Virus record (IMG/VR): IMGVR_UViG_3300012987_000009
Location: 1,690 to 65,689 of that record
Strand: one strand, 5' to 3'
DNA: 64,000 nucleotides
Source of the DNA: a virus
Lineage: Duplodnaviria > Caudoviricetes
Under the pieces are notes generated by a model that worked only from the letters and a program-made list of their open reading frames with translations, ran no database searches and was not told where the DNA came from. Position 1 is the stretch's first letter. The number at the start of each line of letters is the position of its first letter. Below are positions 3,554 to 59,932 of the stretch, piece by piece. The position numbers were made by a program, and so were the translations under genes.

Positions 3554-3907
3554 TCATTTTTTATTAGGTTGATTATTTCTTTTAACTTTTGAACAACCAT
3601 ATATGCTATACTCGTCGCCAATCATTAAATACCTCCATGTTCTTCTGCCGAATATCCATTTTCTTTTTGATCTATATACTAAATGATGACCTGTACATAC
3701 ATCATTATTTGTTATGCAATAACCATTTATGCTATGAGCAAAAGACGGCGGGATATAAGATATTAACAATATAGACGGTATTGTGTCTATATTATTAATC
3801 ATTGTAACCGAGTCGCGAATGGCTGGCTTGTAGAACGATGACTGCGCATTGCATGTGGTTGAAAGTACAGCAATAAGAACTACGATCAATATTAGTGCTT
3901 GTTTCAT
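3554..3907 (-). CDS. secreted protein (Sec signal peptide)
   Basis: MKQALILIVVLIAVLSTTCNA|Q. Confidence 0.7.
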   Translation of the reverse strand: MKQALILIVVLIAVLSTTCNAQSSFYKPAIRDSVTMINNIDTIPSILLISYIPPSFAHSINGYCITNNDVCTGHHLVYRSKRKWIFGRRTWRYLMIGDEYSIYGCSKVKRNNQPNKK

Positions 3908-8927: not shown

Positions 8928-9227
8928 ATGAGTGAAATGGGAGAAATGTGGAGCGAACAACGCGAAAAGCTCCGATCAAAAAAGGCTAACCTGTTAAAGT
9001 GGAATACAGATGTAATGTATGGTATGCAGGTAGAATTCGACAACTACTTTGAAATAAAAAAGCATACTGAGTTTCATTACAGCCTATTCCATCCTGAACG
9101 CGGGCGTATGGACTTTTGGCCGTCTACAGGAAAGATATCATGGTTCAATAAGAACGGTAAAACATACGGCAAGCCAACTGTTATAAAAGACTTTGAAGAA
9201 TATTTGATGCAGAATTTCAAACCATAG
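8928..9227 (+). CDS. hypothetical protein
   Basis: MGEMW...DFWPSTGK pattern typical of small phage proteins. Confidence 0.65.
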   Translation: MSEMGEMWSEQREKLRSKKANLLKWNTDVMYGMQVEFDNYFEIKKHTEFHYSLFHPERGRMDFWPSTGKISWFNKNGKTYGKPTVIKDFEEYLMQNFKP

Positions 9228-9260
9228 ATGCATTCACACTAACTAAATAAAATAATAACA

Positions 9261-9560
9261 ATGAGCAATAACAATAACAAATCAGGAGGGGTCGGGTTCC
9301 TTGGATTATTATGCCTTGTATTTATCGTTTTAAAACTTACTGATAATATCGATTGGTCTTGGTGGTGGGTATTGTGTCCATTGTGGGGGCCCGTGGTATT
9401 ATGTTTGGTTGGGTTGGCTATTTACTTCCCTTTTTGGGTTAAAAATAAAAAAGATAAAGAAAAAAGAATAGCCGCTGGCTATAGCAAACACAGTTGGGAC
9501 AACGGCGGCAGATCAAAATGGCAACAAAGGCTTGATGAAATGAATAAACAAAAAAAATAA
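9261..9560 (+). CDS. two-TM membrane protein
   Basis: GVGFLGLLCLVFIVLKL...IDWSWWWVLCPLW. Confidence 0.75.
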   Translation: MSNNNNKSGGVGFLGLLCLVFIVLKLTDNIDWSWWWVLCPLWGPVVLCLVGLAIYFPFWVKNKKDKEKRIAAGYSKHSWDNGGRSKWQQRLDEMNKQKK

Positions 9561-9561
9561 C

Positions 9562-9777
9562 ATGTCAGAAATACACGAAACAACAGATGGCAAAATAATC
9601 CCAATAGAAAATATTGATTATGTAGGCGAAGTTGAGCGACCTTACGAATGGGGGTATAAAGTATTCATGAAAAGCGGTAGTTATTTATGGGTGAGTAAAA
9701 ATGACAGCAGACATTATATCGTTGATTGCAGGAATAAACTTATTGATAAACTTAAAAATCATAAACCATGTATATAG
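9562..9777 (+). CDS. hypothetical protein
   Basis: ORF in operon. Confidence 0.6.
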   Translation: MSEIHETTDGKIIPIENIDYVGEVERPYEWGYKVFMKSGSYLWVSKNDSRHYIVDCRNKLIDKLKNHKPCI

Positions 9778-10199
9778 CAATTACAGAATTTAACGCATGG
9801 GAAAACGAAAGATGGACTTACGTTTTGGATATAGATAAACAAGACGGCGAAGTACTTAATAATCTGATGATATTTATTCGTGTCGCCAATCAGTACTTCG
9901 AAGAAGTAAAAGAGAAGGCAACGCATAGATTATTTGCTGCTTCCAGATATAATTTCAGATTTTATAATGAGTTAGATACAAGTAAAAAGTATCCTGTATT
10001 AAGGAATAAAAAAGTATCGCTTGTGATGAATAGTAAAAGTGCGTACAACTCAGATTTCATTGACCCAAACATGATAATATCGCCATTAAGAATGAAATCT
10101 GCTATGCTAAGAATGAGGGACAAGCAAACAAACGACCTATACAAAAACTTTGATAGCTTATTCTTGAAAAACAAATCAAAGACTGTAACAAAAGACTAA
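9768..10199 (+). CDS. hypothetical protein
   Basis: ORF in operon. Confidence 0.6.
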   Translation: MYIAITEFNAWENERWTYVLDIDKQDGEVLNNLMIFIRVANQYFEEVKEKATHRLFAASRYNFRFYNELDTSKKYPVLRNKKVSLVMNSKSAYNSDFIDPNMIISPLRMKSAMLRMRDKQTNDLYKNFDSLFLKNKSKTVTKD

Positions 10200-10213
10200 T
10201 AGAAGCATAAACA

Positions 10214-10453
10214 ATGAAAAAATCAAAGGCCATTAGTCCGGTTATTGTTACGTTAAAAAATGATTATTTTGAGGTTTTAACTGCTGGGTGGTTAAGTATA
10301 AGTCAACCAGACGGATCATTCATTCCAGTAACTAATGGGGGCTACTTTACATGCAGAAATTTAGAAACTGGGCAATATGCAGATGTTTTCAATAGCGACA
10401 TAAAGCTAATAGCTCGTAAGGCACGAAAAAGAAGTATTTCTAATAATTATTGA
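10214..10453 (+). CDS. hypothetical protein
   Basis: ORF in operon. Confidence 0.55.
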   Translation: MKKSKAISPVIVTLKNDYFEVLTAGWLSISQPDGSFIPVTNGGYFTCRNLETGQYADVFNSDIKLIARKARKRSISNNY

Positions 10454-10785
10454 ATATGTGTGTAGGAATAGATAATTGCAGCAAAAAGAACTGCCTGGAA
10501 CAAGAGCGTTGTGTATTCCCGGTTCGCCTTAGCCTTACTTTTAAAATTGAAGGCCCGGAGGTGGTAGGCAAAATACAATTAAGCAAGTTCGCATGTAGAA
10601 AGCACAGGAAGCTATGTGTCAACGAAAGTGCTTGCGAGATACTAGGCCAATGCATGTATGAGCATCCGGCTGTCATTGCATCTAAAACATTCAAAAGGGA
10701 GCTTAATAAAGCTATTAGTATAGACGAAATATCAAATGTATTTGCAAGGAGATTAGCTAAGGTTAAGAAAATAAATAAAAAATAA
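10450..10785 (+). CDS. Cys-rich protein with two 4-Cys clusters
   Basis: CVGIDNCSKKNCLEQERC and CRKHRKLCVNESACEILGQC. Confidence 0.55.
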   Translation: MNMCVGIDNCSKKNCLEQERCVFPVRLSLTFKIEGPEVVGKIQLSKFACRKHRKLCVNESACEILGQCMYEHPAVIASKTFKRELNKAISIDEISNVFARRLAKVKKINKK

Positions 10786-10791
10786 TTACTT

Positions 10792-11034
10792 ATGCAGACA
10801 TTAAAATTGATATTTGGAGCAATGGCTCCTAAATTGGCAGAACAGCTTAAAAGTCAGAATTTTTCTTACAATAAAGTAGATATGATTCATTTTCAAAAAG
10901 ACGCCGATGCTATAGTTAGGCTTAAAGTAAGAGGATTAATCACAGCTTTTGAGACAGAAAAAGCAACAAACAAACTTATAAAAAGTATAAAAAAGCACAT
11001 AGAGAGTAGATTGCAAGAAACAGATTTTAAATAA
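10792..11034 (+). CDS. hypothetical protein
   Basis: ORF in operon. Confidence 0.6.
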   Translation: MQTLKLIFGAMAPKLAEQLKSQNFSYNKVDMIHFQKDADAIVRLKVRGLITAFETEKATNKLIKSIKKHIESRLQETDFK

Positions 11035-11186
11035 TTACTGAAAAACCAACATCCACACCTATTCGTCCATCTAACGTCCTATGGCCTCTGAATTTTTTAG
11101 GGAATATTTTTCCCAAAATGAACTAAAAAATTTGCTCATACAAATATAACGCCGTAGATTAGCGGAATCAATTACCCATAAAAACA

Positions 11187-11384
11187 ATGGCACGTAAACC
11201 AAGACCGTTAGACATAGCCGCATTGAAGGCTGAATACGAAGTATTAGTTGAGGCGTTGAAAAAAGTAGATTTCGATAAAGCGAAGGCCGCCCGGCTGCTC
11301 AACGTAGATCGCAAGACAATTTCCAATAAATTAAAGCAGTGTCGTGAAGCAGGAGTGCATGAACAATCCACTCAAGTTGCTTAA
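11187..11384 (+). CDS. stand-alone Fis/NtrC-type HTH protein
   Basis: LVEALKKVDFDKAKAARLLNVDRKTISNKLKQ. Confidence 0.8.
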   Translation: MARKPRPLDIAALKAEYEVLVEALKKVDFDKAKAARLLNVDRKTISNKLKQCREAGVHEQSTQVA

Positions 11385-11484
11385 ATTGCCAACCCTAAAC
11401 ATTCACATCTTATAAAATTAGAATGCGAAAACACGTTTCAATTTTTAGTGTACTAACCTGGGTAAATATTCGATTAGATTTTAT

Positions 11485-11591
11485 AAAAGGCAAAACCCCG
11501 TCCTAAGACGGGGCCGTAATTAAATACTCCGGTGTTTTTAAAGCCTTTGACCGGCCTGCCGCTGACTAAACGGCACACAATCTCAAAGTTA
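11485..11591 (-). ncRNA. candidate antisense small RNA (about 94 nt) with its own promoter and terminator
   Basis: Minus-strand TAACTTTG (11591-11584), hairpins TGCCG/CGGCA and CCGGT/ACCGG, terminator CCCCGTC/GACGGGG plus TTTTGCCTTTT. Confidence 0.55.
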
Positions 11592-11900
11592 CTAAACTTA
11601 TTTGGTATTCTTACCAACTACCTTGGGCAATGTTCTACGAAGAAAACAACCCTTAAGATTTAAAGGCAGCCCTGTTACTCCAGGGATGTAAAGGTGGTTA
11701 ACTGATATGCGATTAGGGGCTTAATGACCGGATGACCGGGCCTTATCGCTTAATATACACTGAGTAGGGAGAGAAAGGATTTGTAGCGGGAACCCTGTGT
11801 ATATGAAGGTGGTATCAGTAAAATAGGTAGTCAAATATCAGCACCCTAAAAGGTGCCGGTATCTAACCTTTGTATGTTTAATATTAAATAAAAAAAATAT

Positions 11901-48170: not shown

Positions 48171-48674
48171 ATGGCAAAAGTCTTAGTAAAGGTTGCTCCC
48201 AAGGCCGGTGATCCCACAAAGCCAACTTCAGGCAGTGATATGTATATTACTGGAAATAAAAGCAGAATTGATCAAGATTTCGATTTGAGAGATAAGCTAG
48301 CAGAATTGGCAGTCAGAGGAAATTCTTTAAACCCAGATGACAAAGCGGCAATATACGGATATTTAACAACTAACCTTGGGAAAGACAGGGCAATGAAATT
48401 GATGAACCATGCGTATATCTTTAATACAAGGCCGGATGTGCAGCGCTTGAGTCCAGAAGAAAAGCTGAAGTCATTCTATACAATAGGGTCGTCTGACCCG
48501 GATGTAATGGATCTCATTAAGAGAACAAAAAATTTAGGGTATGGGATATTGCCCGGATACCGGGAGTCTATAAGTGATTTGAATCAGGCTACACAAAGAG
48601 GTGATGTTGCTCCCCTCGTTCAGGGGATAGCCCCTGAAGTTAGGGAAAGGGTAAAGCTTCAGATTCGAAAATAA
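48171..48674 (+). CDS. hypothetical virion-module protein
   Basis: ORF coupled to the previous gene. Confidence 0.55.
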   Translation: MAKVLVKVAPKAGDPTKPTSGSDMYITGNKSRIDQDFDLRDKLAELAVRGNSLNPDDKAAIYGYLTTNLGKDRAMKLMNHAYIFNTRPDVQRLSPEEKLKSFYTIGSSDPDVMDLIKRTKNLGYGILPGYRESISDLNQATQRGDVAPLVQGIAPEVRERVKLQIRK

Positions 48675-49242: not shown

Positions 49243-49820
49243 TGGGCATATTCGTACCAACTACAACATATTTGAATTATGGCAAAATAAGTCAGTTCTT
49301 GGCGGCTGATCGAATCTCGGAGAACATGTTATTTAGGGGTAGCGATAAGGCTCCCAAATTATCATGGCTGATTGAATTAGTTAGGAAGGCGATTGAGTGG
49401 AAGAATGGAATTGACAGTTCTGATGAAAGCATAAATGAAACAAGTTTGTATTTGTATGACTTGTGCGGAAGATATATACGTGAAGCTAAACAGATATTGA
49501 ATGCCGGAGGTTCTGGCGAAATTATTAATCCTTCAACTGGAAACGCAGTGACTATAGCAACTCCAAATCCGCAGTTTAGGATAGGGCAACCAGGGTCTTT
49601 AATGAATGCCGGAGATACTCAAATTACATTCAATTATTCGGGGGTTGTAAATCCTAGTTTAGAAATAACATTGGATGGGACAGAGGTGCCCTATGGCGAT
49701 GCCTTCCAGTTCAGCTTTACAGCAACATATAACCCAACGAATGTGGTCGTTACATTTAGTAATCCTGTACAGAATGGGTGGCTGCTTAATTTTCACATGA
49801 TTCAATTAGTCAACATATAG
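49242..49820 (+). CDS. putative tail hub/fibre-attachment protein
   Basis: Helical N-half, beta-sandwich C-half; TAATG coupling. Confidence 0.5.
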   Translation: MGIFVPTTTYLNYGKISQFLAADRISENMLFRGSDKAPKLSWLIELVRKAIEWKNGIDSSDESINETSLYLYDLCGRYIREAKQILNAGGSGEIINPSTGNAVTIATPNPQFRIGQPGSLMNAGDTQITFNYSGVVNPSLEITLDGTEVPYGDAFQFSFTATYNPTNVVVTFSNPVQNGWLLNFHMIQLVNI

Positions 49821-49821
49821 T

Positions 49822-52800
49822 ATGAAGTATATAGTTTATATATTCTTGTTTTTACTGATGGGCATGACTGTAAGGGCTCAATTGCCTAGCAGTACATTCC
49901 CGTCTAGGGTATTCAACGGGAATACAAAGGCGCAATGGATAATATTAGACAGCCCTGCTGTTAATCCAATACTGGATACGTTTAATGCCAGGTATCCGGG
50001 AACGCAATTAGTAAGGATTCAAGGTGGAGATACTGCGTTCTGGTTTGGCGCTGGAGGTCATTTGTGGTTCAGGAGCTTATTAAGTCGGGATACTGTATCG
50101 TTAAGTAATAGAATTAACCTAAAACTAAACATAACTGATACTGCTAATAAATGGTGGGGTATTGGTAAACGGTGGGTAGATACGGTGTATCGTGTGAATG
50201 ATTCAACTGTAGGCTATACTATAAATGGGTCACCTTATACATTTGAGATAAAGGGCGGCGCTCAAGGCGGTGGCGGGGGAACTGGCACCGTAACGAGCGT
50301 TGGGTTATCAATGCCTTCTGCATTCTCAGTCACGCCGTCTACTATTACATCTAGCGGCACATTTAATGTTTCTGGAGCAGGCACATCTGCTCAATATATT
50401 AGAGGCAATGGGACGCTTGCGACTACTGACACTGGTATGATTCCGAATTTTTATGTAAAAGCGCGATCATTGTTTTCTGGCACATCTCCCATAACATATA
50501 ATTCAACGACAGGGTTATTGGGGGTGTTGCGTGCAAATACTAGTGGGCAATTAGGGGTGGCTTCATTTAACAATAGTGATTTCGTTGACAATGGAGCGGG
50601 GTTGATTTCACTTCGTAATTCAACTGGAGGAGCTGGGGTGGATACCATATTAAGAATACCAGGGGTAGACAGTATTTATTTTACAATAAGTGGAGTTCAG
50701 TATGCAATTAAAGATAGTTCTGGCATGGTAGTATATGCTAGTAATGGGTTGTCAAAAAATGCAGACACTGTTCAGCTGGGGCAAACAGTTGGCGCAGTGG
50801 GTAATCCTGCTGCGTTGTCAAGTAGTAGGGAGATCCCGTTGAATGGATTTAATACCGTATTTACTGGAACTGGGGGGCTCGCCATTGGGACATCTACTGT
50901 TGGCAACCGGAAATTAAATATATCTGCTACATCTACAACTCAAGGGGCTAATGTTACTACTGTGGATGGCACTGGGATAAACGTGGTGGCATCCGGAACT
51001 GGGAATGCAATGTTCGGTCAAGCGGGCGGTACGGGTACTGGGGTGACAGGTAGTAATTCAGGTAGTTCTGGGTATGGTTTAGTGGGGGTGTCTTCAAGTA
51101 ATAGTGCAATACCATTTAAGGCAAATAATTTCAGCACTCTTACAAATTCAGCGACTCCTGTAGTTGCAGAATTTGTAAGGAATGTTACAGGGATACCAGC
51201 GGATGGGGTGGGTCTTACTGTTATGTTTCGCGGCCAGACAACTACCACTACTGATGTGGAAATGGGGCAAATAAGAAGCTATTTTAGTACTGCATTGCAT
51301 GGTAGCCGGTCATCTGCCTTTGAATTTCATCTGGTAAATAATGCGGTGTCAGCTCGAAAGGCATTCCTTGCATCAACAGGGCAATGGACTTGGGATGGTT
51401 ATCCCGGCTTGACGGCACAAATAGATACGACTACATATAAGCCAGTCGCTATTGATGGTTCTGGTAATGTTGTGAAAATGGCTGGATGGGCAGGTAGCGG
51501 CGGTGGTGGTGGCGCTATATTGAATAATATAGGAACAGGGGGCGCTTGGGCGGCTACTCCTTCCGGTAATATAAAAAGAGCGGCCAACAGCAACACAATT
51601 ACATGGGATAGTACAAGTACCGCAAATTCATTAACGGCAAAAGTAGACACATCATATATAGCAACGCGCTCCATTTGCCAGTGGCCAAATGAACGGAGGC
51701 TTGATACATTTTATAAGAAAAATAATTGGATAAATGGCAATGATTTTACTATACACGGGGCGGCATTATTGAGTTCGAATGGTAACTTCTTGGATCTTTC
51801 AGGCGGCGATGGGACATATGGTAGTAACTACATTACATTCAGCAATGTAACCATGCTGTCGAAATGGAAGATGGTTCTGTTAATTAAACTAACTGGGGCA
51901 TTAGTTTCTGGGGGTGGCTTGGCTGCTGGGTTAAAATATGTGAACTCTAACGCACAATATGATATACAAGGGAGTTTTGCATTTAACACTACAGGGTCAA
52001 CGCCGATCTATATAGCTACTACTAGAGGAGGGGGAACCGTATATCAAACTAGTGGGGGCTCAATGTCGTTTAGCCAAAATGATGTTATAAAGTTAGAGTT
52101 TGAATTTAATGATAGCTCATTTACAGTTTCAGAAACAAATATAACAACAGCAGCAAGTCCCGTGTCTACTACATATAGTTGGGCGAATCCTACTGTTGCT
52201 GCCGGGCAAATACCCAACACATGTAGTTTTGCGATATTCCCTATTAAGGGGGCTCAACAGATTCAATCAATTACTTTAAGCTCGGCTGAAACGCAATTTG
52301 CTTCTGTGGCTATGATCGGAGATAGCAAAGATCAGTTGGGGTTTGCTAGTAGCTTCTCATCTAGAATAGGGAATGAAGTAAATTCATCCATGCCAACGAC
52401 TATTACAAGGGCTGGAGAGGGAGATGGGGTTACACAAACGATGGCCGGGCTTCCTGAGATAAAACTGCTTTCACCCAGAATTGCCTTGTTAAACATTGGG
52501 TCAAATAGTATCCGACAAGGCATGAATGTGTATCAAGTTTTTTCTGCGTATGACAGTATTGTAAAGTCTATCGCATCAACAGGGATTCAGGTGTATCATA
52601 TGGTAATGCCTGAGGATACAGTAGATAATCCAACCAGTGCAGTAGGAATGAGTTTATTTAAACAGATGGTGCAAAGCACATATGGGGCGTTTTATATGAA
52701 CAAAATATGGGATACCCTTGCGGATAATAATAACAGATTAAAGGCTGCGTTTGACTCTGGGGATGGCGTGCATTTGAATCAGGCTGGTATAGATGCCACT

Positions 52801-54222
52801 GTGGTGGCCATATTGAGTTCAAATAAATTAACGGTATGCCCCTCGCGAGTGAGAGATGATTATTTTATAGCGGGTACATTAACAAATTCAAGTACGTCTA
52901 CAGGCATAGCCATAGGCGGAACTGATAATTACATTTTAAAGAAGTCTGGCGGTAATACAGCCAATAGCCTGTTGTATGATGCCGGGACGGGGGTTGGGTT
53001 GGGAACTACCACTCCGATAAACAAATTAGAAATAACAGGCAACGATTTTACAAATAGTATAGTGAAATTTGGTAGTGCTGAAATTCAAAGTGCGGAAGAT
53101 TGTAATTCTTTTGTGTCTAATAATGGACATTTTAACGGAACTAACTGGCGGTACGCTACAAATGGCGGGGCTTCTATATATCAATTATATAGAGATAGCT
53201 TGGTTATATACCTTCTTCCTGCTGGCACCGCTGGCGGCACTATTAATCAAAGCCTTTATAAAAAGATAGAAATAGGGCCACGGGAATTTAGATCAAAAAT
53301 CCCTATAAAAACATTAGACAGTATTACATTTTTCAATTTAACAGCTCCTCCTTCTACGTATAACATTTTGGTGCATGGATTAACGGATAGTCTAGTATAT
53401 CAAGTGCCTGCTTCCTTGTTTGGTGGAATATCGAGTCTAAATGCGCTGACCGCCTCTACGCAGACATTTGCGACTGGCACAAGCGGGAGTGATTTTAATA
53501 TTAATTCGTCTACCTCAACACATACATTTAATATCCCATCAGCCTCTACATCGAATAGAGGGTTAGTCACCACAGCGGGACAGACATTTGGCGGCCAAAA
53601 AACATTTAATGATGGGATTGTTGCTACATCTGGTGTTAATCCAAGGGTGACTATAAATGGGAATGTAAGCACAACAATAGGGCCATCTACTTATGGAGAT
53701 GGCTTGTTGATTGATTTTATAACACACACTAATACTGGCGCTGCTACAACAATATCAGATAATGAGAATTTTAATTTCATTGCAAATCCTACATTAACTT
53801 CTCCGAATGCCATATCGTATACAGGGGATGTAGCTACGGTTAGATTTGTTGGCGCTCCAGTAGCCGCAGGCAGCACGACCATATCTCATCCTTGGAACAT
53901 TTTGGCAAATGACGTTAACTACTTTGCTGGGGTAGCAATGTCATTGAATGAGCAAACAGGGAGTGTTACGCTATCAAATGCATCTGGGATAAACATTTAT
54001 ACAGGGACAGGCGGTAGTACTTGGACGTTGCCTGCACTTGCCACACATCCTGGCAAGTTCATTTTTATAAAAAACGCAGGAAGTGGCAATCTTACGGTTC
54101 AAAGAGCGGGCTCCGATAATATATATGAAACCAGCTCGGTAACGAGCATCACCATAGCAGCGGGAGCTTCCAGAATGTTTGCAGCGGGGAGTGCGTTCTG
54201 GTATGTATGTACGTTCAATTAA
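49822..54222 (+). CDS. tail fibre/spike-like protein with Sec signal peptide and SGNH esterase domain
   Basis: MKYIVYIFLFLLMGMTVRA|Q; GTGTVTSVGLSMP fibre motif; IGDS...NIGSN...DGVH; C-terminal TWTLPA...KFIFIKNAGSGNLTV tip. Confidence 0.75.
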   Translation: MKYIVYIFLFLLMGMTVRAQLPSSTFPSRVFNGNTKAQWIILDSPAVNPILDTFNARYPGTQLVRIQGGDTAFWFGAGGHLWFRSLLSRDTVSLSNRINLKLNITDTANKWWGIGKRWVDTVYRVNDSTVGYTINGSPYTFEIKGGAQGGGGGTGTVTSVGLSMPSAFSVTPSTITSSGTFNVSGAGTSAQYIRGNGTLATTDTGMIPNFYVKARSLFSGTSPITYNSTTGLLGVLRANTSGQLGVASFNNSDFVDNGAGLISLRNSTGGAGVDTILRIPGVDSIYFTISGVQYAIKDSSGMVVYASNGLSKNADTVQLGQTVGAVGNPAALSSSREIPLNGFNTVFTGTGGLAIGTSTVGNRKLNISATSTTQGANVTTVDGTGINVVASGTGNAMFGQAGGTGTGVTGSNSGSSGYGLVGVSSSNSAIPFKANNFSTLTNSATPVVAEFVRNVTGIPADGVGLTVMFRGQTTTTTDVEMGQIRSYFSTALHGSRSSAFEFHLVNNAVSARKAFLASTGQWTWDGYPGLTAQIDTTTYKPVAIDGSGNVVKMAGWAGSGGGGGAILNNIGTGGAWAATPSGNIKRAANSNTITWDSTSTANSLTAKVDTSYIATRSICQWPNERRLDTFYKKNNWINGNDFTIHGAALLSSNGNFLDLSGGDGTYGSNYITFSNVTMLSKWKMVLLIKLTGALVSGGGLAAGLKYVNSNAQYDIQGSFAFNTTGSTPIYIATTRGGGTVYQTSGGSMSFSQNDVIKLEFEFNDSSFTVSETNITTAASPVSTTYSWANPTVAAGQIPNTCSFAIFPIKGAQQIQSITLSSAETQFASVAMIGDSKDQLGFASSFSSRIGNEVNSSMPTTITRAGEGDGVTQTMAGLPEIKLLSPRIALLNIGSNSIRQGMNVYQVFSAYDSIVKSIASTGIQVYHMVMPEDTVDNPTSAVGMSLFKQMVQSTYGAFYMNKIWDTLADNNNRLKAAFDSGDGVHLNQAGIDATVVAILSSNKLTVCPSRVRDDYFIAGTLTNSSTSTGIAIGGTDNYILKKSGGNTANSLLYDAGTGVGLGTTTPINKLEITGNDFTNSIVKFGSAEIQSAEDCNSFVSNNGHFNGTNWRYATNGGASIYQLYRDSLVIYLLPAGTAGGTINQSLYKKIEIGPREFRSKIPIKTLDSITFFNLTAPPSTYNILVHGLTDSLVYQVPASLFGGISSLNALTASTQTFATGTSGSDFNINSSTSTHTFNIPSASTSNRGLVTTAGQTFGGQKTFNDGIVATSGVNPRVTINGNVSTTIGPSTYGDGLLIDFITHTNTGAATTISDNENFNFIANPTLTSPNAISYTGDVATVRFVGAPVAAGSTTISHPWNILANDVNYFAGVAMSLNEQTGSVTLSNASGINIYTGTGGSTWTLPALATHPGKFIFIKNAGSGNLTVQRAGSDNIYETSSVTSITIAAGASRMFAAGSAFWYVCTFN

Positions 54223-54260: not shown

Positions 54261-54680
54261 ATGAATAAATATCCTGATTTTTGGTCAACATTGCTGGGCA
54301 ATGGGTCTTTGGGAACATTTTTGGCGTATTTGGTTATATCTTATTTTGCCGCTACTGCAAGCCTATTGTTTGAGGCAAGTAACAGGGATATAGCTAGCGA
54401 TAACACCCCTAAAAAATGGAGCACTCAGTTTCTTTTGGCATCTAATGTTCTTAGGCTAGTTGCCAACCTATTGACAATCCCACTACTAATCCGGTTAGAA
54501 TATCAGTATGTTGATATGGAGTGGATGATACTGCTCGTTATTGCACAGGGCATACTGATAGATCGCGCCTTTATGTTCCTTAAAAATATAGGTGTATTGG
54601 CTTCTAATAGGTTTGCATCGAAAGTTGCTGATAAAATATCTAGCACTGATTTAGTAGTAACCAAAGGCGATAATCCGTAA
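54261..54680 (+). CDS. multi-TM membrane protein (holin candidate)
   Basis: Three hydrophobic segments; start of the lysis block. Confidence 0.55.
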   Translation: MNKYPDFWSTLLGNGSLGTFLAYLVISYFAATASLLFEASNRDIASDNTPKKWSTQFLLASNVLRLVANLLTIPLLIRLEYQYVDMEWMILLVIAQGILIDRAFMFLKNIGVLASNRFASKVADKISSTDLVVTKGDNP

Positions 54681-56767: not shown

Positions 56768-57135
56768 ATTGTTTATATACATATATGTTCATGGCTTTAG
56801 CCGCTGTGTTTAAGGCGTGTGCGGATGCATTTGAAAATACACCAAACTTTGATGAGAGTGTATTTAAAAGGTTGAATAAGAAGTTTTGGTGTAAGGATGT
56901 GTCTTGGCAATATGCCAAGGTTTTGTCGATAAAAATACCGTTTTTTAAGAAACGGGTTGGGTCATATAAAATAGACAGTTGGCATATTAGTATTACACTT
57001 ATGGTTTGTATGATAGCAGCAGCTGTTGTTACATATGTCCCTTGTTATGAATGGTGGCTTCATTATCTGAGTATAGGGCTGATATGGAATGTGGTATTTG
57101 TTTTGTTCTATCATATAATATTTCAAGTTAAATGA
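56764..57135 (+). CDS. three-TM membrane protein
   Basis: Hydrophobic segments flanking FWCKDVSWQY; DSWH motif. Confidence 0.6.
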   Translation: MNCLYTYMFMALAAVFKACADAFENTPNFDESVFKRLNKKFWCKDVSWQYAKVLSIKIPFFKKRVGSYKIDSWHISITLMVCMIAAAVVTYVPCYEWWLHYLSIGLIWNVVFVLFYHIIFQVK

Positions 57136-57734
57136 CAATAACAGTAGACATATTAAAGGCTATTGCACCAGGGAGCAAGAAAACAAATTTCAAGCATTTG
57201 GGAGGATTGGCCCTTTGGATGAACCATTGGTTCCCAAAATTTGAAATTGACACAAAGGGGGAGTTGTGTCATATACTGGCGCAATTAGCCCATGAAAGTG
57301 ACTCATTCAATGCCATGGAGGAATATGCAAGCGGAAATGCGTATGAAGGGCGATTAGATTTAGGGAATAAGATTAAGGGGGATGGTGTTAGGTTCAAAGG
57401 GCGTGGCCCATTGCAAGTAACAGGCCGAAAAAACTACTATTTAATGGGAACGAAGGCAGGCGCTCCGTTAAAATTCATAAACAATCCTGAGCTTCTGGCG
57501 ACGCCAGAGTGGGGGGTATGGTCGGCGTGTATTTTTTGGACTGAAAAAGGGTTGCTCGATATATCAAATATGCCAGATGGGGCAAGAATACCATTAAAAA
57601 TAAAAACCGATAAGGGGTATGAATTAGTGCCGCTGGAACCCATAGTGTACATTAGTAGGCGAGTGAATGGTGGCGTCAATGGTTTGGCAGAAAGGATTAA
57701 GTTTTATGGCAGAGCTAAGGATATTATAAACTAG
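57132..57734 (+). CDS. endolysin, GH19 chitinase/lysozyme-like
   Basis: ILAQLAHES, EEYASG, DLGN...GDGVRFKGRGPLQVTGRKNY, RRVNGGVNGLAER. Confidence 0.9.
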   Translation: MTITVDILKAIAPGSKKTNFKHLGGLALWMNHWFPKFEIDTKGELCHILAQLAHESDSFNAMEEYASGNAYEGRLDLGNKIKGDGVRFKGRGPLQVTGRKNYYLMGTKAGAPLKFINNPELLATPEWGVWSACIFWTEKGLLDISNMPDGARIPLKIKTDKGYELVPLEPIVYISRRVNGGVNGLAERIKFYGRAKDIIN

Positions 57735-58800: not shown

Positions 58801-59073
58801 TCAGTCTTGTATATGTTTAGGTTTAGATGGCTCATAGTAACTGTATACAATAGCTCCATCTGGTGCGAGTATGCATACTTTGCCGGTCTCTACACACTTA
58901 AACCATCCATAACCGTATCCAGACATCCCGCGACGTTCTGGACATGGGTCTTTGGGGCGACGTGATGTGGCGCAACTACAGGCTACAATAGTAATAAAAA
59001 GGGCCAATAAAAAGAATGTGAAATGAATTGATGATCTTCTTTCCTTGTGTGGGTTAATACGGGTTTGTTTCAT
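58801..59073 (-). CDS. putative lipoprotein/membrane protein
   Basis: FTFFLLALFITIVACSC lipobox-like segment. Confidence 0.6.
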   Translation of the reverse strand: MKQTRINPHKERRSSIHFTFFLLALFITIVACSCATSRRPKDPCPERRGMSGYGYGWFKCVETGKVCILAPDGAIVYSYYEPSKPKHIQD

Positions 59074-59587: not shown

Positions 59588-59932
59588 TTAAAGGTTAGTT
59601 TTAGCCCATGAACGTATTAATTCCCCATCGCCTTGTGATAAATAGATGACATAGTGTTTGTAGCGTCCATGCCTATCGGTTTTCCAGGTGCAGGTAAAGC
59701 GCTTAAACAATGTGCCATGAGACTTGAAAAGTTCATTGAATACGCCCTCGTTATCACAGTTTATTTTCGCCTCAGTCTTGGTATAGTTCATCGTTGTTTC
59801 ATCGGCCAGTAGGATGGTGTCTGCTGAGTTTACAACTGAAGGGCATTTGTCGCGTGTTTGGCTGTGAGCTTTTAAATAGAAGGCTCCCAATTGAGCGACA
59901 ATAAGAAAGGCGATAATTGCAATCTTTTTCAT
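59588..59932 (-). CDS. secreted protein (Sec signal peptide)
   Basis: MKKIAIIAFLIVAQLGAFYLKAHS|Q. Confidence 0.65.
   Translation of the reverse strand: MKKIAIIAFLIVAQLGAFYLKAHSQTRDKCPSVVNSADTILLADETTMNYTKTEAKINCDNEGVFNELFKSHGTLFKRFTCTWKTDRHGRYKHYVIYLSQGDGELIRSWAKTNL

Follow-up and report, generated by a model that had tools for sequence, protein, structure and literature searches.

We describe a tail-fibre-type gene whose product carries a signal peptide in a tailed phage (Duplodnaviria; Caudoviricetes). The gene, open reading frame (ORF) 49822-54222, lies in a 64-kb stretch of DNA (positions 1,690 to 65,689, hereafter the window) of the IMG/VR virus record IMGVR_UViG_3300012987_000009. The record is a complete genome of 65,689 bp with inverted terminal repeats. 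The product of 1466 amino acids (aa), P0001, would be a receptor-recognising protein of tail-fibre type, made as a precursor with a Sec/signal peptidase I (SPase I) leader of the kind found in the host phylum. Based on sequence, Sec export of P0001 with cleavage before Gln20 is very likely, and the protein almost certainly matures in the periplasm, away from the compartment in which the particles are built. We consider it probable, from its architecture, that P0001 is the fibre of the particle. The whole chain, in which the virion fibre comes from the exported pool and docks once holin and endolysin have joined the two compartments, has in our judgement a little less than an even chance of being correct.

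A conserved signal peptide of Bacteroidota type

The features at the start of the gene are as follows.

49822-54222, plus strand: ORF of 1466 aa (P0001), leader-bearing modular fibre-like protein
49807-49809, plus strand: in-frame TAG stop, 15 nt before the ATG
49822-49878, plus strand: predicted signal peptide of Sec/SPase I type, residues 1-19, MKYIVYIFLFLLMGMTVRA
49879-49881, plus strand: Gln20, the predicted +1 residue, invariant in the alignment and in line with the Q-rule; pyroglutamate expected

Nucleotides 49822-49884 read ATG AAG TAT ATA GTT TAT ATA TTC TTG TTT TTA CTG ATG GGC ATG ACT GTA AGG GCT CAA TTG, and the N-terminus translates as MKYIVYIFLFLLMGMTVRA|QLP. The positive charge of the n-region is supplied by Lys2, and nearly all homologues have Lys or Arg at positions 2-3. 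The hydrophobic core comprises 14 uncharged residues (3-16), with a mean Kyte-Doolittle value of 3.08 in the best 10-residue window, and an AlphaFold2 (AF2) model places a helix at residues 2-15. The predicted cleavage site has Val17-Arg-Ala19 at -3 to -1, followed by Gln20. Gln at +1, known as the Q-rule, is specific to SPase I substrates of Bacteroidota (PMC5837995, PMC10653852).

A search with residues 1-330 as query gave 661 matches, and leader statistics were calculated on 120 listed homologues. Leaders were called with a hand-written rule (a hydrophobic core followed by small-x-small-Gln) together with conservation, and not with a trained predictor. By this rule 113 of the 120 homologues carry a leader, which is 18-19 aa long in 107, and the remaining seven are fragments or gene calls starting inside the leader. 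The residue at -3 is A (50) or V (40) and that at -1 is A (88), S (19) or G (5). Gln20 is invariant across an alignment of 45 sequences, where identity per column is approximately 20-70% in the leader core as compared with about 90% in the domain that follows. The leader character and the cleavage site are thus kept while the core sequence drifts, which is how real signal peptides behave. We regard the leader as a genuine-looking conserved Sec/SPase I signal of the Bacteroidota Q-rule type. Within the virion module (25.3-54.2 kb, 29 kb) ORF 49822-54222 is the only one with such an N-terminus.

An earlier note, made from the letters of the window, had proposed a cleavable Sec signal peptide at 49822-49884, and both the anatomy of the leader and its presence in 113 of 120 homologues bear this out. 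The note had named homologues without a leader as counter-evidence, and this is not what was found. The same note held that the in-frame TAG excludes a longer N-terminus. We confirm this, as the four codons separating TAG and ATG (TCA ACA TAT AGT) include no start codon and a longer N-terminus is thereby ruled out. The suggestion that Met13 or Met15 could give a cytoplasmic isoform did not hold, and an internal start at these residues was rejected. Among 117 homologues Met13 is present in 2.6% and Met15 in 0.9%, and no Met before residue 164 is conserved, so that there is no conserved leaderless isoform.

Two other export signals were considered. A lipoprotein (signal peptidase II) signal was rejected because residues 1-25 contain no Cys. 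A type IX secretion system (T9SS) route was rejected because no C-terminal sorting domain (TIGR04183 / Por_Secre_tail or type B) was found, in agreement with the earlier note. In brief, P0001 gave no T9SS domain match in NCBIfam at E <= 1 or in Pfam at E <= 0.01, and the domain is absent among the precomputed Pfam matches of the 120 homologues. With neither a T9SS domain nor a lipobox, the periplasm is the expected destination.

Architecture of the fibre-like protein

Behind the leader P0001 is built from the following parts.

49879-50616, plus strand: conserved N-terminal domain, residues 20-265, family-wide, with variable sequence beyond
50239-50616, plus strand: fibre module, residues ~140-265 ('GLSMPSAF...TSGxxGxAxF'), common to leaderless tail fibres
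50617-52296, plus strand: variable Gly/Ser/Thr-rich shaft and middle region, residues 266-825, without family match
52297-52791, plus strand: SGNH/GDSL esterase domain, residues ~826-990
53389-54219, plus strand: C-terminal 277-aa module, residues 1190-1466

IMG/VR contains 417 stretches related to P0001. The C-terminal parts are swapped among the relatives, which carry an SGNH esterase, SASA esterase, BNR sialidase, pectate lyase or LamG domain (PF13472, PF03629, PF13088, PF12708 or PF13385). A conserved N-terminal part combined with exchangeable C-terminal enzymes is the signature of a receptor-binding protein. At least five further leader-bearing N-terminal families have the module at residues ~140-265 as well, as do approximately 40 leaderless fibres, which begin MAKISTYPI.., MAIQFVNNVDF.. 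or MANIKISEL... The last 277 aa recur at full length in about 40 relatives bearing different enzyme domains, and a short motif inside them is shared by 55 leaderless and 36 leader-bearing proteins.

The sequence blocks of the SGNH domain are intact (GDS 833-835, G893-S-N895 and D981-G-V-H984), and N895 and D981 are invariant across eight aligned homologues. It should be noted that PF13472 reaches 24.1 bits on P0001, below the cut-off of 32.9, and spans only residues 864-989; the domain is present in many homologues according to the precomputed Pfam table. PHROGs has no family for P0001 or its small neighbours, Pfam gave no match to a fibre family, and a tblastn search of the whole of P0001 against 50,697 phage records gave no match. 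A sequence search of solved structures returned nothing usable for the whole of P0001 (best E 0.41), for residues 800-1010 or for the profile of the neighbouring 192-aa protein. Residues 20-330 and 1190-1466 matched only viral clusters in the ESM Atlas (0.85-0.87, below the meaningful level).

One relative, a 74.5-kb contig, has the fibre gene in two pieces, a leader-bearing N-terminal part of 319 aa and a remainder of 880 aa (L012:8001-8960 and 9155-11797), which may reflect a frameshift, an error of sequencing or a true split.

Glycosylation sequons are enriched in leader-bearing fibres

Exported proteins of Bacteroidota are O-glycosylated at D-(S/T)-(A/I/L/V/M/T), and only after export (PMC8550257, PMC8729774). 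P0001 has 16 such sequons as against 5.4 expected, and none of 2000 shuffles reached 16. No significant excess was found in the portal, the large terminase (TerL), the major capsid protein (MCP)-like protein, the muzzle, GroEL or the 396-, 517- and 1790-aa proteins of the same phage. For the 332-aa protein the count is somewhat raised (2 as against 0.8 expected), and the cytoplasmic virion proteins of this phage have sequons at about 1x or less. Part of the sequons in P0001 form a conserved group.

50089-50208, plus strand: cluster of four conserved sequons (residues 90, 106, 120 and 127) in the motif 'DTxSLSNRINLKLNxSDT'

These four are retained in 111, 107, 83 and 108 of 117 homologues, respectively, and the motif is also carried by chromosomal leader-bearing proteins of Bacteroidota. 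The variable C-terminal parts of the 117 homologues, which are related by kinship and not mutually independent in this count, hold 1204 sequons as against 521.5 expected, and 114 of them exceed expectation. Control motifs (reversed, E-version, N-version and D-(S/T)-other) occur at 0.57-1.13x and D-[AG]-[AILVMT] at 1.35x. When viral-contig proteins with the common fibre module are compared, 33 leader-bearing proteins have sequons at 2.58x and 36 leaderless proteins at 0.61x (Mann-Whitney p = 6e-12). The leaderless fibres of Bacteroides phage crAss001 have 1.24x. The enrichment of 2.3-2.6x, confined to leader-bearing fibres that share the module or family, further supports export as read from sequence. 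Periplasmic O-glycosylation also appears likely to be a selected feature of P0001.

The remaining proposals of the earlier note fared as follows. Export to the periplasm gains support from leader conservation together with the leader-specific enrichment of sequons. The description as a fibre-like protein agrees with the conserved N-domain, the swapped enzymes and the modules common to leaderless fibres, and the gene is located at the end of the virion module, adjoining the lysis genes. The fibre-tip-like C-terminus is upheld as far as the recurrent 277-aa module and the short motif in leaderless fibres go, and not beyond these.

Genome context and neighbouring genes

The host of this 65.7-kb phage is, judging from its sequence relatives, a soil Bacteroidota. 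Relatives in bacterial genome collections come nearly all from Bacteroidota, notably Chitinophagaceae, Sediminibacterium and Chryseobacterium. The window encodes GroEL, a portal, a large terminase and an MCP-like protein. The nearest TerL are from Cellulophaga and Flavobacterium podophages, at 26% identity. A 1296-aa protein has a weak match to the C-domain of the crassvirus muzzle, and next to it come leaderless proteins of 234, 517 and 1790 aa that parallel gp120, gp121 and gp123 of Cellulophaga phage phi18:3. The gene order continues from the 1790-aa ejection-like protein via three leaderless proteins of 167, 177 and 192 aa to ORF 49822-54222, and further to membrane proteins and a GH19-like endolysin. 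No second fibre-like or receptor-binding candidate was found in the complete genome. The genes around the fibre gene are listed below.

48171-48674, plus strand: conserved small gene, leaderless product of 167 aa
48709-49242, plus strand: conserved small gene, leaderless product of 177 aa
49242-49820, plus strand: gene of a leaderless 192-aa protein, candidate fibre adaptor; its stop (49818-49820) ends 1 nt ahead of the fibre ATG
54261-54680, plus strand: holin-like membrane protein of 139 aa, first gene of the lysis region, 75-81% identical in four of 11 related loci
57132-57734: GH19-like endolysin

The order of a large ejection-like protein, proteins of ~167, ~175 and ~195 aa, a leader-bearing fibre and a membrane protein is kept in 11 related loci, in which the pre-fibre gene abuts or overlaps the fibre ATG. 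Translational coupling is therefore possible. The AF2 model of the 192-aa protein (pLDDT 72.9) has three helices and a beta-sandwich (residues 104-190). The beta-sandwich is matched best by one chain of the portal-tail complex of LME-1 (Z 9.7; 74 residues at an rmsd of 2.5), followed by the N-terminal attachment region of CBA120 tailspike 4 (TSP4; Z 9.0), the Carin-1 fibre assembly and the P-SCSP1u portal-tail complex (both Z 8.0) and T4 baseplate proteins (Z about 7.4). Based on this model, the 192-aa protein may be a leaderless stand-alone fibre adaptor that waits on the tail.

A like layout was observed in an unrelated family of 34-kb phages, where leaderless structural genes are followed by a leader-bearing fibre gene overlapping the preceding gene, and then by lysis genes. 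In this family a 124-aa Q-rule protein is encoded downstream of the leader-bearing fibre (L017:11949-12323, L026:10283-10657). Ahead of the lysozyme lies a lipoprotein-like ORF of 167 aa (..LLGGC|YTQ; L017:12634-13137, L026:10968-11471), possibly an outer-membrane spanin. Some relatives have a homing-endonuclease-like gene (~225 aa, PF22083 NUMOD-like) amid the small leaderless genes upstream of the fibre (L002:8219-8896, L006:6219-6896, L009:6213-6884), which is absent from the window.

The early region of the window contains further ORFs with export-like N-termini, all on the minus strand. ORF 3554-3907 (117 aa; ..TCNA|QSS) and ORF 59588-59932 (114 aa; ..KAHS|QTR) start with signal peptides of Q-rule type, and the phage would thus export at least two more small proteins. 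The 90-aa ORF 58801-59073 has a basic N-terminus, a hydrophobic stretch and 'ITIVAC|SC', resembling a lipoprotein signal with a lipobox Cys, and is located outside the lysis cassette. On a 361-kb contig of Chryseobacterium gambrini a protein of 739 aa (L087:2659-4878) has a hydrophobic N-terminus (..VSFYS|QV), the common fibre module and a C-terminal C1q domain (PF00386, E 6.5e-9), with 0 sequons as against 1.7 expected.

Proposed mechanism and alternatives

We suggest the following route for P0001. In brief, the 19-residue leader would direct the unfolded chain through SecYEG, signal peptidase I would cut after Ala19, and the new N-terminal Gln20 would presumably be cyclised to pyroglutamate by the glutaminyl cyclase of the host. 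The protein would then fold in the periplasm, where the general glycosylation system of the host would O-glycosylate it at its many D-(S/T)-(A/I/L/V/M/T) sites. The cytoplasm would build particles without the fibre, to which the three small upstream genes would probably have contributed their leaderless products by then. Holin and endolysin, encoded downstream, would open the envelope and mix the compartments, and the mature fibre would dock via its conserved N-domain (20-265). At adsorption the SGNH esterase domain would remove acyl groups from the surface polysaccharide of the host; it may also act earlier, removing receptors inside the periplasm ahead of lysis.

Tailed-phage virions assemble in the cytoplasm. 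If the exported pool is also the pool of the particle, docking must occur as the compartments merge. With T4 and P22, the joining of fibres or spikes to completed particles in a lysate is a classical finding, which makes docking after lysis biochemically plausible. A joint reading would be that a large group of uncultured Bacteroidota tailed phages completes its particles outside the cytoplasm, with an obligatorily Sec-exported, pyroGlu-20-trimmed and O-glycosylated fibre joining fibreless particles at lysis via a leaderless adaptor. We consider this joint reading less likely than not.

Several points weigh against the docking of an exported fibre. The phage is uncultured and known from sequence alone, and dilution works against any attachment that follows lysis. 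The AF2 model of residues 1-280 (45-row alignment) is poor (pLDDT 58.7, pTM 0.21), and the Z scores of 8-9.7 for the adaptor candidate barely exceed the level reached by unrelated models. The leaderless set used in the comparison of sequons may include phages of other phyla. For the leader-bearing proteins of two cultured phages, Cellulophaga phages phi18:3 and phi10:1, the virion status rests on a GenBank note. A BLASTP comparison of P0001 with gp085-gp087 of phi18:3 gave no significant similarity, and we therefore treat the Cellulophaga proteins as analogues and not as shown homologues. Enrichment of sequons had been expected in them, but they are depleted (0.32x and 0.39x), which indicates that the enrichment is a trait of this and related soil and freshwater groups and not of all leader-bearing phage fibres. 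In the relative crAss001, for which the virion has been solved, gp22-gp26 are leaderless and residues 1-26 of gp22 plug into the THA/THB hub (PMC10172136). Finally, the mosaic adhesive trimer (MAT) fibres of cell surfaces are laid out like P0001, with a leader, then a conserved N-domain and then a variable fibre.

P0001 might be exported and yet stay outside the virion, as a free periplasmic fibre-like trimeric esterase released at lysis, as a decoy, or as a MAT-like fibre retained in the envelope through its conserved N-domain. It would then strip or deacylate the surface polysaccharide of the host from within, blocking superinfection and keeping progeny off debris, and the particle would bind its receptor with another protein, e.g. 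the 1296-aa muzzle-like protein. All of the evidence for export fits this explanation equally well. Moreover, P0001 does not have the classical leaderless N-terminal anchor of other module-bearing fibres, and the motif in its residues 50-130 is found in chromosomal leader-bearing Bacteroidota proteins with weak matches to the MAT N-domain (24.5 bits, cut-off 60). The like layout of MAT fibres (PMC10769870) and the presumably non-structural Q-rule genes of Porphyromonas phages (PMC10367356) point in the same direction. However, P0001 itself has no MAT_N match, and its gene abuts, and in relatives overlaps, conserved leaderless genes of structural type in a complete genome where no other receptor-binding candidate was found. 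A conserved N-domain joined to interchangeable C-terminal enzymes is the signature of virion receptor-binding proteins, and the analogous leader-bearing proteins of two cultured phages are annotated as detected in purified virions. We consider a role outside the virion unlikely, although not negligible.

The virion pool might also escape export. The precursor would remain partly or mostly in the cytoplasm, through saturation of Sec or fast folding, and be assembled in the usual way. Its hydrophobic N-terminus would lie buried in the tail, act on membranes during infection or be removed by a different protease, and whatever is exported would be a by-product or have a further task. This would agree with textbook cytoplasmic assembly, with the docking of crAss001 gp22 by its extreme N-terminus and with the lack of sequon enrichment in the leader-bearing virion proteins of Cellulophaga phages, and it would sidestep the problem of dilution. 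It leaves unexplained the invariant Gln at +1, the small residues at -3 and -1 and the drift of the core sequence at constant character, as well as the 2.3-2.6x enrichment of a motif that is modified only after export (PMC8550257, PMC8729774), and there is no conserved internal start. We regard escape from export as improbable. A mere artefact, i.e. a misassigned start codon or an ordinary cytoplasmic fibre whose N-terminus is hydrophobic by chance, is close to refuted. The signal-peptide rule was hand-made, but it flags none of about 40 leaderless fibres as leader plus Gln (one or two are merely hydrophobic). An upstream in-frame stop with no alternative start ahead of the ATG, the lack of conservation of Met13 and Met15, the retention of the leader by 113 of 120 homologues, and its presence in several further N-terminal families, likewise argue against an artefact. 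The preferred reading remains that P0001 is exported, matures in the periplasm and joins the particle at lysis.

Implications

New in this work are the contrast in sequons between leader-bearing and leaderless proteins inside one common fibre module, the finding that no leaderless isoform is conserved, the predicted anchor-like fold of the leaderless protein encoded upstream, and the cultured Cellulophaga analogues without sequon enrichment. If the proposed route is true, periplasmic passage of a receptor-binding fibre would be a new late step of morphogenesis, as opposed to the wholly cytoplasmic assembly that is taught. Sec export, signal peptidase I, glutaminyl cyclase and possibly an O-glycosylation locus would be host factors for phage infectivity, and virions would carry glycans of host type, with a bearing on host range, stability and recognition. 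Periplasmic expression may be needed for the folding of these fibres and of their esterase, sialidase or lyase domains. Annotation pipelines that discard proteins with signal peptides as 'non-structural' would miss many receptor-binding proteins of Bacteroidota phages. The cultured Cellulophaga phages phi18:3 and phi10:1 make the question directly testable.

Comparison with known systems

Tailspikes with an SGNH esterase, such as gp63.1 of phage G7C and the Vi-antigen acetyl esterase tailspikes, deacetylate O-antigen or capsule. P0001 resembles these in having the Ser, Gly-x-Asn and Asp-x-x-His blocks within a fibre or spike. To our knowledge, the tailspikes of G7C and Vi-antigen type are leaderless cytoplasmic proteins.

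Classical leaderless fibres and tailspikes with the 'GLSMPSAF' module (loci L038-L084) share the 140-265 module and the C-terminal motif with P0001. Classical fibres, including gp22-gp26 of crAss001, also combine a conserved N-terminal part with C-terminal enzyme or binding domains that are swapped, and their genes occupy the corresponding place in the virion module. They differ in that they open with leaderless anchors (MAKISTYPI.., MANIKISEL.., MADKRISQL..). As the crAss001 fibres are leaderless, the leader is a trait of lineages and not a rule for phages of the phylum.

The MAT fibres of Bdellovibrio bacteriovorus are exported and have a signal peptide, a conserved beta-rich N-domain and a variable body resembling phage fibres (Caulton et al. 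2024, PMC10769870). They differ from P0001 in being encoded by the cell and not in a phage virion module, and the MAT N-domain (NF053851) gave no NCBIfam match in P0001 at E <= 1. Four leader-bearing proteins are encoded on Bacteroidota genome contigs of 61-274 kb that are probably chromosomal (L094:2467-3906, L099:2458-5217, L100:1765-3951, L111:2155-4509). These have the N-terminus 'G(I/L)xFQ(A/G)(I/V)AR', repeats of 'DTxSLSNRIxxKLNxSDT' and sequons above expectation, and in three of the four the MAT N-domain model of Bdellovibrio gives a weak match (17-24.5 bits against a cut-off of 60). MAT-like surface fibres may exist in Bacteroidota and trade modules with the fibres of phages.

We found no description in the literature of Sec leaders on tailed-phage fibres. 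The nearest case is that of the Porphyromonas gingivalis phages, in which genes with Q-rule signal peptides comprise genes of unknown function, capsid proteins and spanins, with fibres unmentioned (Matrishin et al. 2023, PMC10367356). Like P0001, these are phage genes of a Bacteroidota host in which the predicted cleavage exposes Gln. According to the Hankyphage paper, the targets of phage diversity-generating retroelements (DGR) are without signal peptides.

The closest analogues are gp085-gp087 of Cellulophaga phage phi18:3 (NC_021794, a podophage of Pachyviridae) and gp091-gp095 of phage phi10:1 (NC_021802, a siphophage of Assiduviridae). These proteins have Q-rule leaders like that of P0001, ending ..GYS|Q, ..VSA|Q or ..LNA|Q, and are annotated as of fibre or pectate-lyase type. 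As for P0001, their genes are located at the distal end of the tail genes, directly ahead of the lysis genes. They differ in being several smaller proteins (317-786 aa), whereas P0001 is a single protein of 1466 aa. According to GenBank, seven of the eight (phi18:3 gp085-087 and phi10:1 gp091-094) are 'structural, based on experimental MS/MS' (tandem mass spectrometry). The remaining virion proteins of the two phages are leaderless, including all nine others of phi18:3 with mass spectrometric support. Phages phi18:3 and phi10:1 thereby provide indirect evidence, by analogy, that leader-bearing fibres are associated with the virion. No remark on the leaders of these proteins was found in the literature. 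It should be noted that phi18:3 gp086 (L004:34544-36901) and phi10:1 gp093 (L121:6101-8434), both of ~780 aa, are identical in the leader and the first ~45 residues. As this leader is shared by a podophage and a siphophage, leader-bearing fibre genes appear to move between phage families.

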